A DNA stretch of 64,000 bases from Angustibacter luteus (GTDB taxonomy: Bacteria; Actinomycetota; Actinomycetes; Actinomycetales; Angustibacteraceae), in contig NZ_BAABFP010000004.1 of NCBI RefSeq assembly GCF_039541115.1, positions 310,001 to 374,000 of the forward strand. Direction: 5' to 3'. Within the stretch, counting starts at the first letter, position 1. Each line of letters begins with the position of its first letter. Below the pieces are notes generated by a model, which was given only the letters and a program-made list of their open reading frames with translations, was not told the DNA's origin and made no database searches. Shown here in pieces: positions 6,977-13,463 of this stretch. Made by a program: the position numbers and the translations under genes.

Positions 6977-9268
6977 CTACTGCTCCGGGGCGACTTCGAA
7001 CCAGACCACCTTGCCCGCGACGTCGTCGGACACCCCCCAGGACGTGGAGAGCAGGTCGAGGATGTCCAGGCCGCGGCCGTCCAGCGCGTCGTCCTGGCGC
7101 TCGGCCCGCAGCGGGTGCCGGGAGTTGTCGTCGCCGACCTCCACCCGGATCCGGTCGGTTCGCATGATCAGCCGGAGCCGGGCCTCGCTGCGGCCGTGGA
7201 TGAACGCGTTCGTCACGGTCTCGCTGGTCAGCAGGACGACCGTCTCGGTCGTGGCGATCAGGTACCCGGCCTGCCGGCAGTGCTGCTGGACGAACGAGCG
7301 AGCGCGACGGACGGCCCCGACGTCCGGCGGCAGCACCAGGGACACGTCCGAGCGACGGGCCGGCGTCGGAGCCCGGAGCTCGCTGTCCGCGCGGTCCGCG
7401 CGGTCGTCGGGGGCGTCCACCGCGGACCGGACGAACGTCGGCAGCTCCCCCGAGTCGTCCACCGGGTTGCAGCGGATCGCCAGCAGCGCGACGTCGTCCT
7501 CGGCGTCCGTGGGCAGCTCGCCCAGCAGCGCGTCGCACAGCGAGCCCAGCGGCAGGTTGGCGAGGGCCTGCACCCGGTGCCGCAGCCACTCCAGCCCCTG
7601 GGTCAGGGACTCGCCGCGCCGCTCCACCAGGCCGTCGGTGTACAGCAGCAACGTCATCCCCGGCTCCATCACGAGCCGGTGGTCGGTGCGCGCGGTCCCG
7701 GGCAGCAGGCCCAGCAGCAGCTCGGGCTCACTGACCAGCAGCTCGCCCTGCCCGTCCGCCGTCAACAGGATCGGTGGCGGGTGCCCCGCGTTCGACCAGC
7801 GCAGCGACCGCGTCACCGTCGTCCGGTCGCCCTCGACCTCGGCCTGCAGGTCCCGCTCGACCCGAGCCAGCACCGCGGTGGCCAGCGCGTCGACGTCCAG
7901 GTCCCGCAGCGCGTGGTCCAGACCCGTGAGCACCTCGGCCGGCGAGCCGTCCAGGCTGTGGGCCACCCCGCGCAGGACACCGCGCACCTGGGCCATCGAG
8001 GCGGTGGCCAGCCGGTCGTGCCCGGCGACGTCCCCGATCACCAGCATCGTGTCGCCGTCCGGCAGCGCGAAGGAGTCGTACCAGTCCCCGCCCACGTAGG
8101 CCTCGCGGGCCGCCGGCAGGTAGCGGGCGACCAGCTGCAGGTGCGCGGGCTGCGCCGGGTCGGTGAGCAGGCTGCGCTGCAGCGACTCCGACAGCAGTCG
8201 GGACGACATCGTCGCCTCCCGCTCGGCCTGGCGCGCCTGGATCCGTTGCAGCGCCTGGGCGCACTGGGCCGCGAACGCCGCCAGCAGCTCCTTCTCGTCG
8301 AGGGTGAAGGCGCGGGGCTCCACCCAGCTGACGGTCAGTGACCCGAGCAGCCGACCCTCGGCCAGCAGCGGCAGGGAGGCCCACGCGTCGCAGCCGGACG
8401 TCGCGTAGACGAGCTGCATCTCCTCGCCCCAGGCCAGTCCCTCGTCCCGGTTGCCCAGGTAGATCGGCTCCGGCACCACTGCGGCCACCACCGACGGCAG
8501 ACGGGTCGACGTCGGCATCTCCTGGCGCAGCCGCTGACCCTCGCGGCGGGTGTCCGTGATGGTCAGCCGCACCACCTGGTCCTGGTCGTCGCGCACCGCC
8601 ACACCGCCGCCGTCGCAGCCCATCGCCGCGACGCCGCGGACCACGATGAGGTCGGTGAGCTCCTCGACGGAGTCCGCCGCGGCCAGCTCGAGGGCGACGA
8701 ACGCGAGGCCCTGCAGCCGCCGTCCGACCTGGGCCTCCGCCGCGCTGAGGACGGCCATCTCGCGCTGCTGGACCACCAGGTCCGACTCCAGCCGCTGCGC
8801 GTGCTCCAGGAGCTCGACCTCGCGGCGCTCGTGCACCCGGCGCCGCTCCTCGTCGTGCACCGTGGCGGTCACGTCCGCGACGGTGCTGAGGACCAACCGG
8901 GTGTCCTTCGTGTCCTCGAGCGGCGAGTTCGTGACCGACCACCAGCGCTCGACGAAGGTCCCCGAGTCGGCGGGCAGCTCGATGTCGTGCCGCATGCGGG
9001 GGACGACGTGCGTCGCTCCGCTGTGCAGGGCGCGGGCGACGGAGTCGGTCAGCGGGCCGCCGGGGCCGACGACGCCGGGCTGGTCCGGGTTGGTGGGGAA
9101 GCTGTCCGCCACCGGACGGCCGACCAGCTGGTCGCGGCTGCGCCCGGTGAGCGCCAGCAACGCGTCGCTGACGGCGACGACCACGAGCTGCTCGTCCAGC
9201 AGCCAGCAGGGCAGCGGGACCGCAGCCAGGACGGCCCGGTAGTCGAGGACGGCATGCTCGTCCGCCAC
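6977..9268 (-). CDS. PAS-GAF-SpoIIE(PP2C)-HATPase_c sigma-factor regulator
   Basis: VGGDWYD, IGDVAGH, NAGHPPP, YTDGLVE, DDVALL; C-terminal SETVTNA...GRGL; GGAGGGAGG RBS before GTG 9268. Confidence 0.9.
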   Translation of the reverse strand: MADEHAVLDYRAVLAAVPLPCWLLDEQLVVVAVSDALLALTGRSRDQLVGRPVADSFPTNPDQPGVVGPGGPLTDSVARALHSGATHVVPRMRHDIELPADSGTFVERWWSVTNSPLEDTKDTRLVLSTVADVTATVHDEERRRVHERREVELLEHAQRLESDLVVQQREMAVLSAAEAQVGRRLQGLAFVALELAAADSVEELTDLIVVRGVAAMGCDGGGVAVRDDQDQVVRLTITDTRREGQRLRQEMPTSTRLPSVVAAVVPEPIYLGNRDEGLAWGEEMQLVYATSGCDAWASLPLLAEGRLLGSLTVSWVEPRAFTLDEKELLAAFAAQCAQALQRIQARQAEREATMSSRLLSESLQRSLLTDPAQPAHLQLVARYLPAAREAYVGGDWYDSFALPDGDTMLVIGDVAGHDRLATASMAQVRGVLRGVAHSLDGSPAEVLTGLDHALRDLDVDALATAVLARVERDLQAEVEGDRTTVTRSLRWSNAGHPPPILLTADGQGELLVSEPELLLGLLPGTARTDHRLVMEPGMTLLLYTDGLVERRGESLTQGLEWLRHRVQALANLPLGSLCDALLGELPTDAEDDVALLAIRCNPVDDSGELPTFVRSAVDAPDDRADRADSELRAPTPARRSDVSLVLPPDVGAVRRARSFVQQHCRQAGYLIATTETVVLLTSETVTNAFIHGRSEARLRLIMRTDRIRVEVGDDNSRHPLRAERQDDALDGRGLDILDLLSTSWGVSDDVAGKVVWFEVAPEQ

Positions 9269-9521
9269 GGCCCTCCCTCCGCAGTCCTTGGCTGCCGCCA
9301 TTGGCCGCCCATCGATCCCCGCACCCTGCGTGCGTCCCCAGAGTCTCCACCAGGATGCGCTCCGAACGCGACGCATCGGACATGTCGCCGCCAATTCCAC
9401 CCCATCGGGCCTGTCCGCCTGGAGGGACGCGCCTTCCGTGCTCGCGCTCTGAGTGGCAGGGTCCGGCCTGGGGGGCTAGGTATGAACCTCACGACCCCGC
9501 ACGCGACTCGAGGAGGAACCC

Positions 9522-9803
9522 ATGAGCGACGACACCCAGGACCCGACCACGGAAGGCCCCGCCGACGGCGGTGCCAGCGGCACGCCCGGCCAGCACGACG
9601 GTGGTGCTGACGGTGGCGCGGATGGCGGTGCTGACGGTGGCGCTGACGGCGGTGCTGACGGTGGCGCCGATGGCGGTGCTGACGGTGGCGCCGATGGCGG
9701 TGCTGACGGTGGCGCTGACGGCGGCGCTGACGGTGGTGCTGACGGTGGTGCTGACGGTGGCGCTGACGGTGGCGCCGATGGCGGTGCTGACGGCAGCGCC
9801 TGA
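9522..9803 (+). CDS. 93-aa acidic Gly-rich repeat peptide: 25-aa leader + (DGGA)x16 + DGSA
   Basis: AGGAGG RBS at 9511-9516; repeat units differ almost only at synonymous third positions. Confidence 0.85.
   Translation: MSDDTQDPTTEGPADGGASGTPGQHDGGADGGADGGADGGADGGADGGADGGADGGADGGADGGADGGADGGADGGADGGADGGADGGADGSA
9597..9800 (+). repeat. 12-bp tandem repeat x17, GA(C/T)GG(T/C)GG(T/C)GCN, coding
   Basis: Counted directly in the sequence. Confidence 0.97.
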
Positions 9804-11057
9804 GTGCAACCCGCTCCGCCGGCGCAGGTGCCCGGGCTGACGCCCGGGCACCTCGCCCTGCCACGGTTGGTGTCCGCCGACCCGGACGCCTTCGCCCGCG
9901 AGGTCTGGGGTCACGAGGCCTGGCTCAGCCAGGCGGCTGACCTGCCCGGCGACGTCCACGACCTGCTGGACGCCGACGCCGTCGACGAGCTGGTCTCGTC
10001 GCGCGGGCTGCGCACCCCGTTCCTGCGGGTCGCCAAGAACGGCAGCACCCTGCCCGACCGGTCCTTCACCGCCGGCGGCGGCATCGGCGCCGCCGTGGGC
10101 GACCAGATCAGCGACGACAAGCTGCTGCGGCTGTTCGCGGACGGCGCGACGCTCGTCCTGCAGGGCCTGCACCGCACCTGGCCGCCGCTGGTCGCGTTCT
10201 GCCAGCAGCTCGCGGCCGAGCTCGGGCACCCGGTGCAGGCCAACGCGTACGTGACGCCGCCGCAGTCGCAGGGCTTCGACGACCACTACGACGTGCACGA
10301 CGTGTTCGTCCTGCAGGTCGAGGGTGAGAAGCGCTGGCGGATCCACGCCCCGGTGCACGAGGCGCCGCTGCGCGACCAGCCCTGGACGGACCGCCGCCAG
10401 GACGTCGCCCGGGCCGCCGCCACCGAGCCGCTGCTCGACGTTGTCCTCACCCCCGGTGACTGCCTCTACCTGCCGCGCGGCTTCCTGCACGCGGCGACCG
10501 CGCTCGGCGCGGTCAGCACCCACCTCACGCTCGGGGTGCACACCTGGACCCGGCACTCGCTGGCGCAGCAGGTCCTGGACCAGGCCCTCGCCAGCCTCGC
10601 CGCCGACCCTCAGGTGCGGCACTCGCTCGCCCTGGGCGCGGACGTCGCGGACCCCACGGCCATCGCCGACGACCTCGAGCTGATCCGCGGACGCCTGCTG
10701 GACGCCGTCCGGGACGTTGACGCGGCCGCGGTGGCCCAACGGCTGGCGGCGCACCGGCTGGCCGCTCAGCGCGCCGCGCCGGTCGCACCCCTCGCCCAGC
10801 TGCGCGAGGCGGCAGCGCTGACCGACGACGCTCCTCTACCAGCCGGGCTCGCGCTCCGTGCGCACCTGCTGCCGCAGCTGGTCGACGAACCCGACGGCGG
10901 AGCGGTCCTGCGCAGCCGGGCCGGCGACGTCCGGCTCCAGGCCGACCAGGTGGACTCCGTGCGCGAGCTCCTCAAGACCGGGCGCGCCGACGACCTCGGG
11001 TCTGCCCTGGCCCGCACCCTGCTGCTCACCGGGATCCTCGTAGCGCCGAACCGATGA
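9804..11057 (+). CDS. JmjC/cupin_4 Fe(II)/2-oxoglutarate oxygenase (ROX: NO66/MINA53/YcfD-like)
   Basis: ANAYVTPPQSQGFDDHYDVHDVFVLQVEGEKRW (HxD) and GDCLYLPRGFLH (distal His); start uncertain. Confidence 0.9.
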   Translation: MQPAPPAQVPGLTPGHLALPRLVSADPDAFAREVWGHEAWLSQAADLPGDVHDLLDADAVDELVSSRGLRTPFLRVAKNGSTLPDRSFTAGGGIGAAVGDQISDDKLLRLFADGATLVLQGLHRTWPPLVAFCQQLAAELGHPVQANAYVTPPQSQGFDDHYDVHDVFVLQVEGEKRWRIHAPVHEAPLRDQPWTDRRQDVARAAATEPLLDVVLTPGDCLYLPRGFLHAATALGAVSTHLTLGVHTWTRHSLAQQVLDQALASLAADPQVRHSLALGADVADPTAIADDLELIRGRLLDAVRDVDAAAVAQRLAAHRLAAQRAAPVAPLAQLREAAALTDDAPLPAGLALRAHLLPQLVDEPDGGAVLRSRAGDVRLQADQVDSVRELLKTGRADDLGSALARTLLLTGILVAPNR

Positions 11058-11998
11058 CCGACACGACCTTCCGCTGCGCCGACGCCGCTCGCGACCGGGA
11101 CGACCCGATGGTGGGGACGGCGGCCCCGGCGCGCCGCTGGCTGCTGATCGAGCACCCGGGGCCGTGGGCGCCGGAGGCGTTCGCGGAGTCCGGCATCGAG
11201 CGCGGCGTCCAGGAGCAGCTGCGCTCGGCGGCAGGGGCGTCCGGTGCCCGGATCCTGCTGGTGCGCCGTCCGGGGCGGGCGGACCCGCAGCGCGGTCCGC
11301 GGGCGTGGGCCGTGGTGGACCACGCGTCCGGCGTCCCCTCGGTGTGGGGCACGTGGACCGAGGACGGCGACCTGCTGGACGCTGCGCTCGCCCTGGATCC
11401 CGAGCGGGCGCCGGTCGGTCCGGTGCACGCCGCCGAGGAGCCCGTGCTGCTGGTGTGCACGCACGGCCGGCACGACACGTGCTGCGCGATCCGCGGTCGC
11501 CCGGTGGCGGCGGCGCTGGCGCAGCGCTGGCCGGACTGGACCTGGGAGTGCTCGCACGTCGGCGGCGACCGGTTCGCGGCCAACGTCGTGCTGCTCCCGG
11601 ACGGCGCGTACTACGGCTACCTGGACGCCGAGTCCGCGGTGCGGGTGGTCGAGCAGCACCTGGCCGGCCGGGTCGATGCCGACTTCCTGCGGGGGCTGTC
11701 CACCGAGCCGCCGGTGGTGCAGGCCGCCGTCGTGGAAGCGTTGCGGCAGTGGGGTCCTGTCGGTGCTCGGACGTTCCGCTCGGTGCACCTGGAGGCGTTG
11801 GACGACGGCGGCTGGCGGGTCGAGCTGGCCGGGCAGCCGGGGGCCGGCGTGCCGGACCGGGTGGGCCTCACGGTGCGACGAGCGACCCGCGCCGCCGCGC
11901 AGCTCACCTGCCGCGCCGGCGGCCCGGCCGCCTCGACGACGTACGAGGTGGTGGACGCGCGGGTGCTCGGGCCGACCTCGCCGGATGCGGCAGGATGA
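11054..11998 (+). CDS. sucrase/ferredoxin-like (thioredoxin-like 2Fe-2S, Apd1/Aim32 family) protein
   Basis: WLLIEHPGPW, VCTHGRHDTCCA, WECSHVGGDRFAAN, YYG motifs; ATGA overlap with the JmjC gene. Confidence 0.88.
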   Translation: MTDTTFRCADAARDRDDPMVGTAAPARRWLLIEHPGPWAPEAFAESGIERGVQEQLRSAAGASGARILLVRRPGRADPQRGPRAWAVVDHASGVPSVWGTWTEDGDLLDAALALDPERAPVGPVHAAEEPVLLVCTHGRHDTCCAIRGRPVAAALAQRWPDWTWECSHVGGDRFAANVVLLPDGAYYGYLDAESAVRVVEQHLAGRVDADFLRGLSTEPPVVQAAVVEALRQWGPVGARTFRSVHLEALDDGGWRVELAGQPGAGVPDRVGLTVRRATRAAAQLTCRAGGPAASTTYEVVDARVLGPTSPDAAG

Positions 11999-12002
11999 CC
12001 GC

Positions 12003-12800
12003 ATGCGGATGGTGGCGACCGACCTCGACGGCACGATCGTCGGAGCGGACGGCGCGGTCAGCGCTCGCACGGTCGCGGCCCTGCAGGCCTGCCAGGACGC
12101 CGGGGTGCTCGTCGTCTACGTGACCGGCCGGCCGGTCCGCTGGATGGCCGAGGTGGTGGAGCAGACCGGGCACAGCGGGATCGCCCTGTGCGGCAACGGC
12201 GCCGTGGTCTACGACCTCGCCGCCGAGCAGGTGGTCACGGCGCGCACGCTGTCACCGGAGGTGGCGGTGGAGGTGGCCGACCGGCTGCGCGCGTCCATGT
12301 CGGACGCCCAGTTCGCCGTCGAGACGCTGGCCGGGTTCCGGCTCGAGCCGGGCTTCCAGCCGCACTGGGACGACGCCTTCCGGCCGTTCCCCGAAGGTGA
12401 CCTCGGGCAGCTGCTGGCCGACGACCCTGGCCTGCTGAAGCTCTTGTGCCGCAGCGAGTCCCGGCTGGCCGACGACATGCTGGCCCGGGCGATCCAGGCG
12501 CTGGACGGGCTGGCCGCCCCCACCCACTCGAACCCGCGGGACTGCCTGCTGGAGGTCTCGGCGCTCGGCGTCGGCAAGGCGAGCGCGTTGGCCGAGCTGG
12601 CCGCCGAGCACGGCATCGACCCGGCGGATGTCGTCGCCTTCGGGGACATGCCGAACGACCTGGACATGCTCGCCTGGGCCGGCCGCGGCTACGCGATGGA
12701 CGGCGGGCACGCCGACGTCCTGGCTGTGGCCCAGCACGTCGCGCCGCCGATCCACGAGGACGGCGTCGCCCAGGTCCTGGAGTCCCTCCTCGCCCCCTGA
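12003..12800 (+). CDS. Cof-type HAD-IIB hydrolase
   Basis: ATDLDGT, VTGR, NGA, GVGKA, FGDMPNDLDML motifs. Confidence 0.92.
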   Translation: MRMVATDLDGTIVGADGAVSARTVAALQACQDAGVLVVYVTGRPVRWMAEVVEQTGHSGIALCGNGAVVYDLAAEQVVTARTLSPEVAVEVADRLRASMSDAQFAVETLAGFRLEPGFQPHWDDAFRPFPEGDLGQLLADDPGLLKLLCRSESRLADDMLARAIQALDGLAAPTHSNPRDCLLEVSALGVGKASALAELAAEHGIDPADVVAFGDMPNDLDMLAWAGRGYAMDGGHADVLAVAQHVAPPIHEDGVAQVLESLLAP

Positions 12801-12863
12801 CGCAGATAGGCCACTATCCGGGGTCATGGGGGCTCGAAAGGCCCGGATAGCGGGCTATTTGCG
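12801..12863. terminator. 22-bp imperfect inverted repeat between convergent genes (terminator or REP-like)
   Basis: CGCAGATAGGCCACTATCCGGG ... CCCGGATAGCGGGCTATTTGCG, 3 mismatches. Confidence 0.6.
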
Positions 12864-13463
12864 CTAGAGGTACTGGCCGGTGTTGGGGGGCTGCTGGCTG
12901 GGGTGCTGGGGCTGGCCAGGGTGCTGGGGATGGCCGGGCAGGCCGTCCGGGGGCATCGCGCCGGGCGGCAGGGCGCGGCGCATCTCCTCCAGCTGGGCGC
13001 GGGCGGCCATCTGCTGGGCCATCAAGGCGGTCTGGATGCCGTGGAACAGCCCCTCCAGCCACCCGACGAGCTGGGCCTGGGCGATCCGCAGCTCGGCGTC
13101 CGAGGGGGTCTGGTCACCGCTGAACGGCAAGGTGATCCGGCGCAGCTCGTCGACGAGCTCGGGGGCCAGACCCTGCTCGAGCTCGGTCAGCGAGCGCTCG
13201 TGGATCGCCGCGAGGCGGCTGCGCCCGGCGTCGTCCAGCGGCGCGGAGCGCACCTCCTCGAGCAGCTGCTTGATCATGCTGCCGATCCGCATGACCTTCG
13301 CGGGCTGCTCGATGAGGTCGGCCGGGTTGCGCTCGGCGTCCTCACCCTCCCCGGTGCCGTCTCCGGACCCGCTACCGGACGACGACACGCCCATCCCGTC
13401 CTGGGTGACCACCACGAAGCGGTCCTGCTCGGGTCCCGGGTTCGTCTCGTCAGGCTGGCTCAT
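12864..13463 (-). CDS. bpa: bacterial proteasome activator (Bpa/PafE)
   Basis: QPAKVMRIGSMIKQLLEEVR, ELRIAQAQLVGWLEGLFHGIQ and C-terminal GQYL motif. Confidence 0.95.
   Translation of the reverse strand: MSQPDETNPGPEQDRFVVVTQDGMGVSSSGSGSGDGTGEGEDAERNPADLIEQPAKVMRIGSMIKQLLEEVRSAPLDDAGRSRLAAIHERSLTELEQGLAPELVDELRRITLPFSGDQTPSDAELRIAQAQLVGWLEGLFHGIQTALMAQQMAARAQLEEMRRALPPGAMPPDGLPGHPQHPGQPQHPSQQPPNTGQYL

Follow-up and report, generated by a model that had tools for sequence, protein, structure and literature searches.

An acidic repeat peptide, a ROX-type JmjC oxygenase and a Suc_Fer-like iron–sulfur protein share a conserved gene unit in Actinomycetota and may form a minimal RiPP-like system

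What purpose is served by a small gene that encodes little more than tandem repeats of Asp-Gly-Gly-Ala, when it is placed directly in front of an oxygenase gene? The question is raised by a locus in a 64,000-nt stretch of Angustibacter luteus contig NZ_BAABFP010000004.1 (hereafter the window; all coordinates count from its start), in which the peptide gene is followed by genes for a JmjC protein, a Suc_Fer-like protein and a HAD hydrolase (Table 1). In the original prediction for this DNA, the four genes were viewed as an operon resembling those for peptides that are made on the ribosome and modified after translation (RiPPs), the peptide being the substrate of the JmjC enzyme. The present study finds strong support, from comparison of gene neighbourhoods, for the peptide, oxygenase and ferredoxin-like genes being a dedicated, conserved unit. 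The reading favoured here, with confidence a little above even, is that these three genes work as a minimal RiPP-like system in which the JmjC protein hydroxylates the peptide, most likely at C-3 of Asp.

Homologs of the JmjC protein were collected from three sets of genomes: 61 related genomes, with a match in 21; the GTDB at one genome per species, from which the best 80 of 119 relatives were kept, all of them named actinobacteria; and a phylum-wide sample of 401 genomes, with matches at E ≤ 1e-10 in 76. In the first set an acidic repeat open reading frame (ORF) lay upstream of the JmjC gene at 19 of 21 loci, the two exceptions being a locus whose upstream sequence is limited to 83 nt and another with an acidic ORF that is not a repeat. 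The second set gave an acidic, Asp-rich repeat ORF immediately 5' of the JmjC gene at 79 of 80 loci, and the remaining locus has only 40 nt of upstream sequence. An acidic, Asp-rich repeat ORF also preceded the JmjC gene at 38 of 40 loci that were hand-picked from the 76 phylum genomes, with three unpublished genomes (G323, G147 and G107) left out. A search of the neighbourhoods of JmjC homologs for the repeat ORF was the check that the original prediction had proposed for itself, and these counts answer it in the affirmative. The recurrence of the trio across the phylum makes it probable that the enzyme acts on the peptide as its own substrate.

The Suc_Fer-like gene is the conserved third gene, as had been proposed. 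It was found directly downstream of the JmjC gene at 72 of the 80 loci and in 63 of the 76 phylum-sample genomes (60 of 73 without the unpublished ones), and six of the remaining 13 carry it elsewhere. The HAD gene, also proposed as a member, did not hold its place, as a homolog was found downstream at only one of the 80 loci; it is a neighbour, possibly co-transcribed, outside the conserved unit. When all ORFs of the 80 loci were clustered, the only families to cross clades were the JmjC and Suc_Fer-like proteins, and the remaining neighbours were clade-specific, such as an SDR gene in Streptomyces and SpoIIE, HATPase_c_2 and STAS genes in Nocardioides.

Spacing within the unit is tight. The commonest arrangement of peptide stop and JmjC start is a 4-base overlap (39 of 75 scored loci, a soft figure as the starts were chosen by script), and the JmjC and Suc_Fer-like genes either overlap by 4 nt or stand about 10 nt apart. 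In the window the peptide TGA directly abuts the GTG at 9804, the JmjC stop and Suc_Fer-like start overlap as ATGA (11054–11057), and 4 nt separate the Suc_Fer-like stop from the HAD ATG at 12003, so that the coordinates agree with the gene order and spacing originally described. The JmjC and Suc_Fer-like genes are each present in a single copy in the 4.16-Mb genome, and a six-frame scan of the whole genome for at least three tandem D[GS]GA units returned this locus only. A read-through fusion of peptide and enzyme, to which the single TGA between two ORFs in one frame might point, was considered and rejected; the ORFs of relatives mostly overlap by 4 bases and lie in different frames, and the shared frame in the window looks coincidental. 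A search for fused forms returned 14 longer matches, none of them with JmjC_2, although this is a weak negative because long low-complexity proteins fill the list.

The peptide of the window begins with an acidic leader (residues 1–14), followed by DGGA, SGTPGQH and then 68 residues made up of 17 tandem units, 16 of DGGA and a final DGSA. It carries 22 Asp and Glu residues, no Lys or Arg, and no hydrophobic N-terminus. ORF reading thus bears out the earlier description of a 93-aa product with a strong ribosome-binding site, a short leader, 17 DG(G/S)A units and no signal peptide. The repeat is visible in the DNA, where Tandem Repeats Finder described 9597–9793 both with a period of 12 (16.4 copies, 78% matches, score 240) and with a period of 24 (8.2 copies, 89% matches, score 284). 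Codon usage is unusual, with GGT specifying 19 of 38 Gly and GCT 12 of 19 Ala, where the neighbouring genes use these codons at 12% and 5%. The 24-bp period and the odd codon usage suggest that slippage recently expanded one DNA unit, rather than that codons were selected.

Comparison with relatives places this run in a wider context, as the unit that is conserved is not DGGA itself but a 23-aa module, E-G-P-A-D-G-G-A-[AES]-G-[TV]-P-G-[VQ]-[HQ]-D-G-G-A-D-G-G-A, found in 77 of 86 distinct peptides at one to five copies each. The window peptide carries one such module (EGPADGGA-x-G-x-PG-x-x-DGGADGGA) with the DGGA expansion after it, and by this comparison its (DGGA)17 run is a local expansion of the module tail. 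Altogether 206 modules were found in the 86 peptides, and the 180 that are exactly 23 aa long were used for position tallies. At positions that lie outside the search pattern, conservation is close to complete (A4 180/180, G10 180/180, P12 178/180, G13 178/180), and each of these residues is specified by three or four synonymous codons. P3 is likewise 180/180, but it was fixed by the pattern. Residues that stay constant under varying synonymous codons imply purifying selection on the peptide reading frame, and by this measure the comparison shows the frame to be translated. All three forward frames are open across the ORF in the window, and the other two have no conservation between relatives. 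Nearly all of the relatives have a GGAG-type ribosome-binding site ahead of the peptide start.

In other actinobacterial classes the repeats are different, being of DADGTD, DGDATD, DADAAD and DADSTD types, and the types seen overall are DGGA, DADGTD/DGDATD, DADSTD and GSDPAG. What many of the distant peptides share is a leader motif, L-x-D-[DE]-[DE]-I-x-T-[TV], present in 24 of 34 that were detected automatically, with further cases recognized by eye. It occurs also in Amycolatopsis-type peptides, and the leader of the window peptide is a degenerate version of it. In the distant classes (phylum-level loci L109–L138) this motif could be what the enzyme recognizes. None of nine peptides tested, that of the window among them, matched a Pfam or NCBIfam family, and public records label these peptides as 'hypothetical protein' and once as 'BatC protein'. 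In three metagenome-assembled genomes (loci L051, L054 and L065) the peptide ORF shifts frame within the repeat and continues as Val/Ala/Leu/Thr-rich text, probably because of assembly errors in the repeat. In another case (P0060, one Streptomyces lineage, seven member sequences) no stop codon separates a cation-efflux ORF (CDF, PF01545) from the acidic peptide ORF into which it runs. This arrangement was seen at none of the 80 loci, and could be either a gene-call artefact or a true adjacency.

The JmjC protein scores 101.9 bits with Pfam JmjC_2 (PF08007; cut-off 22, E 2.4e-29). Its best sequence matches in the PDB are NO66 (E 2e-22) and MINA53 (E 4.7e-18), followed by YxbC (E 2.5e-8) and YcfD (E 1.6e-7). 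Across 81 sequences H161, D163, H229, K176 and N147 are invariant; the first four align with the HYD motif, the His and the GRK Lys of NO66, and N147 is aligned too. K176 we take to be the Lys that binds 2-oxoglutarate (2OG). The AlphaFold (AF2) model has a mean predicted local distance difference test (pLDDT) score of 93.5 and aligns with full-length NO66 chains over 464 columns (E 2.6e-25, template modelling (TM) score 0.62, about 24% sequence identity), and this match to whole chains implies that the JmjC, dimerization and winged-helix parts are all present. The WHD_ROXA domain is found in a share of the Atlas cluster members of this protein. The assignment to the ribosomal oxygenase (ROX) type therefore stands, and on its predicted structure the protein is a full three-domain, ROX-type Fe(II)/2OG oxygenase, closest to NO66, that looks catalytically competent. 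Complex prediction for this protein with peptide residues 1–50 and Fe gave a score of 0.02 (mark 0.32), which speaks neither for nor against an interaction.

The Suc_Fer-like protein matches PF06999 at 79.4 bits (cut-off 34.9, E 4.8e-22). Its model (pLDDT 92.5) contains a region, residues 127–221, that resembles thioredoxin-like [2Fe-2S] ferredoxins. VIA-align matched these residues to the Aquifex ferredoxin 1f37_A with Z 7.4 and a root-mean-square deviation of 2.7 over 95 residues, and Foldseek gave E 1.1e-3 with TM scores of 0.66–0.70 depending on the target. Among 73 sequences C135-X8-C144 and H168-X3-D172 are invariant, C166, two residues before H168, is kept in 90% or more of them, and invariance extends to Cys8 and Cys286, both outside the ferredoxin domain. 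The model has additional β domains at the N- and C-termini, neither with a clear structural relative; for the C-terminal one, four-stranded and spanning about residues 224–309, the VIA-align matches reached Z 5.7 at most. The signature of the Apd1/Aim32 proteins is given as CX8C...HX3H in PMC8482512. The designation 'Apd1-like ferredoxin' in the original prediction is therefore correct as to family, fold and the CX8C element but not as to the second ligand pair, where HX3D replaces HX3H. The protein is best read as a ligand variant of the Apd1/Aim32 family, not of the bis-His type, with a predicted cluster; the less conserved Cys166, the two outlying cysteines and the extra β domains set it further apart.

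A second conserved feature, of which the original prediction makes no mention, lies just beyond the peptide stop. In the window, the 80 nt at 9796–9875 fold with a minimum free energy of −47.3 kcal/mol (z-score −3.62), a stability reached by none of 200 dinucleotide shuffles. A survey of 88 distinct loci, scored against mononucleotide shuffles and with matched windows placed 400 nt deeper in the JmjC gene as controls, gave z below −2 at the equivalent position in 72 of 88 loci and in none of the 88 controls, and mean folding energies of −45.3 and −27.4 kcal/mol, respectively. Stems are of 10–18 bp and retain perfect pairing while their sequence varies between lineages. The hairpins fall within the first 5–25 JmjC codons, the amino acids encoded there are not conserved, and at most loci no further in-frame start codon occurs before the conserved JmjC N-terminus. 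No U-tract follows the hairpin of the window. It may be inferred that the hairpin limits either transcription into the enzyme gene or initiation of its translation, leaving the peptide in excess, and such an excess would fit a substrate better than a stoichiometric partner.

How the system would operate can be outlined as follows. The small gene would supply an unstructured, strongly acidic peptide consisting of a short leader and repeated Asp-rich units, and the translationally coupled ROX-type enzyme would hydroxylate it many times using Fe(II), 2OG and O2, with C-3 of Asp as the likeliest site. The thioredoxin-like iron–sulfur protein would probably act as electron donor, for example in re-reducing the enzyme's iron. 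The hairpin past the peptide stop probably holds enzyme output well below that of the peptide, and low enzyme with high peptide output is the pattern expected of a substrate and its enzyme. The product is probably uncleaved and cytoplasmic, and it might bind metal. The choice of Asp comes from two considerations. According to PMC9994133, ROX enzymes hydroxylate C-3 of the target residue, and the only residue with a β-methylene group common to all repeat types is Asp, the other constants being Gly and Ala; the His of the module is not conserved, as position 15 may also be Gln, Ser or Arg. Together these make C-3 of Asp the best guess, by analogy with known ROX chemistry.

The likeness to known systems is partial in each case. 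With NO66, MINA53 and YcfD the JmjC protein shares the JmjC_2 family, the HxD...H triad, the Lys and Asn residues and the full-length fold, but its clade is fixed beside its own acidic repeat peptide and an iron–sulfur-type protein, whereas we know of no dedicated partner gene for the known ROX enzymes. Fe/2OG enzymes do serve as tailoring hydroxylases in RiPP pathways, CinX of cinnamycin being an example. Two JmjC proteins with such roles have been described, namely BipG, the Orn hydroxylase of biphenomycin (PMC12707348), and CzlI, which acts on CzlA in the curacozole pathway and whose nearest structure is given there as YxbC rather than NO66 (PMC11575548). As in the present unit, an Fe/2OG oxygenase gene stands beside a small ribosomal peptide, which in those pathways is hydroxylated. 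The BipG and CzlI clusters are large, with cyclases, proteases and transporters, and the oxygenase acts once on a short core; here there are three genes, the peptide is built of Asp-rich units in tandem over 50–150 aa, and no protease or exporter is conserved. The position of the hairpin also has a parallel. Operons of the lantibiotic type have a stem-loop after the structural gene and before the modification gene, and the unit likewise has a stable stem-loop directly 3' of the precursor gene; it differs in that the stem lies inside the first enzyme codons, the enzyme ORF starts at or overlaps the peptide stop, and there is no U-tract. Of the features by which RiPP loci are recognized, a small precursor gene adjoining and co-conserved with a modifying enzyme is present, and no leader protease or exporter is conserved in the cluster across the 80 loci. 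No description of the peptide family or of the trio was found in the literature, in a search that left subscription journals and supplements outside its range.

Several observations weigh against the peptide being the substrate of a RiPP-like system. To our knowledge, all characterised ROX enzymes target His or Arg of ribosomal proteins, and none targets Asp. NO66 and MINA53 are narrowly selective, according to PMC9994133, and public clusters containing the JmjC protein are automatically named 'Ribosomal protein L16 Arg81 hydroxylase'. The protein is itself acidic (isoelectric point 5.4), which by itself offers no argument for binding a polyanion. Two of the 40 phylum loci, G350 and G192, which are among the most distant homologs, have no acidic ORF, and 8 of the 80 loci have no adjacent Suc_Fer gene, so that a third gene in cis is no requirement. 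Clustering of the ORFs of the 80 loci revealed no conserved protease, exporter or recognized RiPP recognition element nearby, the first two as the original prediction had said of the unit. The distant classes do not have the hairpin as a rule, with 9 of 34 loci and 3 of 34 controls positive. Finally, the GC content at third codon positions (GC3) is 0.61 in the peptide frame and 0.91 in frame 2 of the window, an objection that is overridden by the comparative evidence for selection on the peptide frame.

The strongest of the rival explanations, though an improbable one, is that the JmjC protein is a hydroxylase of ribosomal proteins, like YcfD or NO66, and that the peptide is a co-made regulator, which might inhibit the enzyme by competition, act as a chaperone or gate the enzyme as a polyanionic mimic. 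The nearest relatives of the protein by fold and sequence are indeed ribosomal oxygenases, the automatic annotation says the same, an idea of competition appears in PMC9994133, and translational coupling would fix the stoichiometry of the two products. A generic polyanion, however, would have no need of a 23-aa module that is kept residue by residue across orders, and the peptides differ in module number, from 0 to 5, in the manner of multi-core precursors. The peptide excess predicted from the hairpin does not suit a regulator of this kind either, and within the order of the window's organism the ORF stands beside every JmjC_2 homolog found that has upstream DNA.

A different chemistry on the same substrate is also unlikely. 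In this case the peptide would be hydroxylated at Pro (in EGP or xPG), at the His/Gln position or at Ala, or would undergo a 2OG-dependent reaction other than hydroxylation, such as desaturation. Of the two prolines, P12 is nearly invariant without having been fixed by the search pattern, as P3 was; His occupies position 15 in 110 of the 180 modules, and NO66 and MINA53 are His hydroxylases (PMC9994133). Against these, position 15 is Gln (61), Ser (6) or Arg (3) in the other 70 modules, Pro and His are absent from many distant types of repeat (DADSTD and DADAAD, for example), and Asp alone is common to all types. That the small ORF has no function as a protein, but is a regulatory upstream ORF or a repeat DNA or RNA element that controls JmjC expression, is very unlikely, for although its low GC3, its three open forward frames, its 12/24-bp tandem repeat and the structured RNA directly 3' would be in keeping with such an element, the amino acids of the module are fixed while its codons vary freely, the alternative frames are not conserved between relatives, a canonical ribosome-binding site is present, and other classes retain the ORF with wholly different repeat DNA and a leader motif in common.

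Hydroxylation of the peptide by the JmjC enzyme, most likely at Asp, is preferred over these alternatives. A broader version can be put forward tentatively, in which the unit represents a phylum-wide class of Asp-rich repeat peptides that are hydroxylated at C-3 of many Asp residues, giving an intracellular poly(β-hydroxy-aspartate) that would bind or buffer a metal, for example iron or calcium, with the variant [2Fe-2S] protein servicing the system and the hairpin providing a stoichiometric excess of peptide.

The coordinates of the unit and its surroundings are collected in Table 1.

Table 1. Features of the peptide–oxygenase–ferredoxin locus and its neighbours in the window.
Feature	Position	Strand	Remarks
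Putative promoter region	9451..9483	+	GAGTGGCAGG ... TAGGTAT; words recur upstream in L002, L003, L006 and L011; low confidence
Ribosome-binding site GAGGAGG	9510..9516	+	5 nt before ATG
Precursor-like peptide gene, 93 aa	9522..9803	+	ATG 9522; stop TGA 9801–9803
JmjC gene, 417 aa	9804..11057	+	GTG start assumed, GTG 9828 also possible; PF08007
GC-rich RNA hairpin, 12-bp stem, 4-nt loop	9826..9853	+	23 nt past peptide stop; JmjC codons 8–17
Suc_Fer-like gene, 314 aa	11054..11998	+	Stop 11996–11998; PF06999
HAD gene (Cof-type, Hydrolase_3)	12003..12800	+	PF08282, E 1.8e-42
SpoIIE/HATPase_c_2 gene, also with PAS and GAF domains	6977–9400	−	Upstream neighbour of unit
Proteasome-activator (Bpa) gene	12864–13463	−	Downstream neighbour

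Scans of 9200–13000 with consensus patterns gave no match to a sigma-70 promoter and none to an intrinsic terminator, and Rfam returned only two sub-threshold, chance matches for 9200–9900, both on the minus strand. No convincing metal or SOS operator was recognized in 88 upstream regions when four short consensus boxes were used (IdeR, Zur, Fur and LexA), the best IdeR-box match having 8 mismatches in 19. The unit adjoins a fusion of a SpoIIE phosphatase with HATPase_c_2, an anti-sigma-kinase-like domain, and homologs of this gene occur at 6 of the 80 loci. Loci of Nocardioides (L043-type) have an equivalent SpoIIE-type gene with STAS instead, and a role as a stress-signalling neighbour is possible. 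On the other side, the Bpa gene contains an 18-bp tandem repeat (2.6 copies, 12893–12938, minus strand) that specifies a Pro/Gln/His-rich C-terminal tail of this bacterial proteasome activator homolog. At one locus (L106, genome G210) a 62-aa ORF rich in His, Glu and Asp, with about a quarter of its residues His, lies some 100 nt 5' of the peptide gene on the same strand; it was seen in this genome only and is a possible metal-related neighbour. His-rich proteins are found close by at a few loci, without conservation, and the matches of a scan for His-rich ORFs were mostly antisense frames of the repeats.

Should the peptide prove to be the substrate, it would be the first non-ribosomal, dedicated bacterial substrate for the ROX branch of the JmjC oxygenases, and the widespread automatic annotation of these enzymes as L16 Arg81 hydroxylases would be corrected. 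The peptides would then constitute a new precursor family, outside Pfam and NCBIfam and distributed across the Actinomycetota, and the pairing of an Fe/2OG enzyme with a dedicated iron–sulfur protein would be relevant to the question of how bacteria maintain enzymes of this type in the reduced state. Were the unit to produce a poly(hydroxy-Asp) that is genetically encoded, the polymer would represent a novel type of metal-binding biopolymer.

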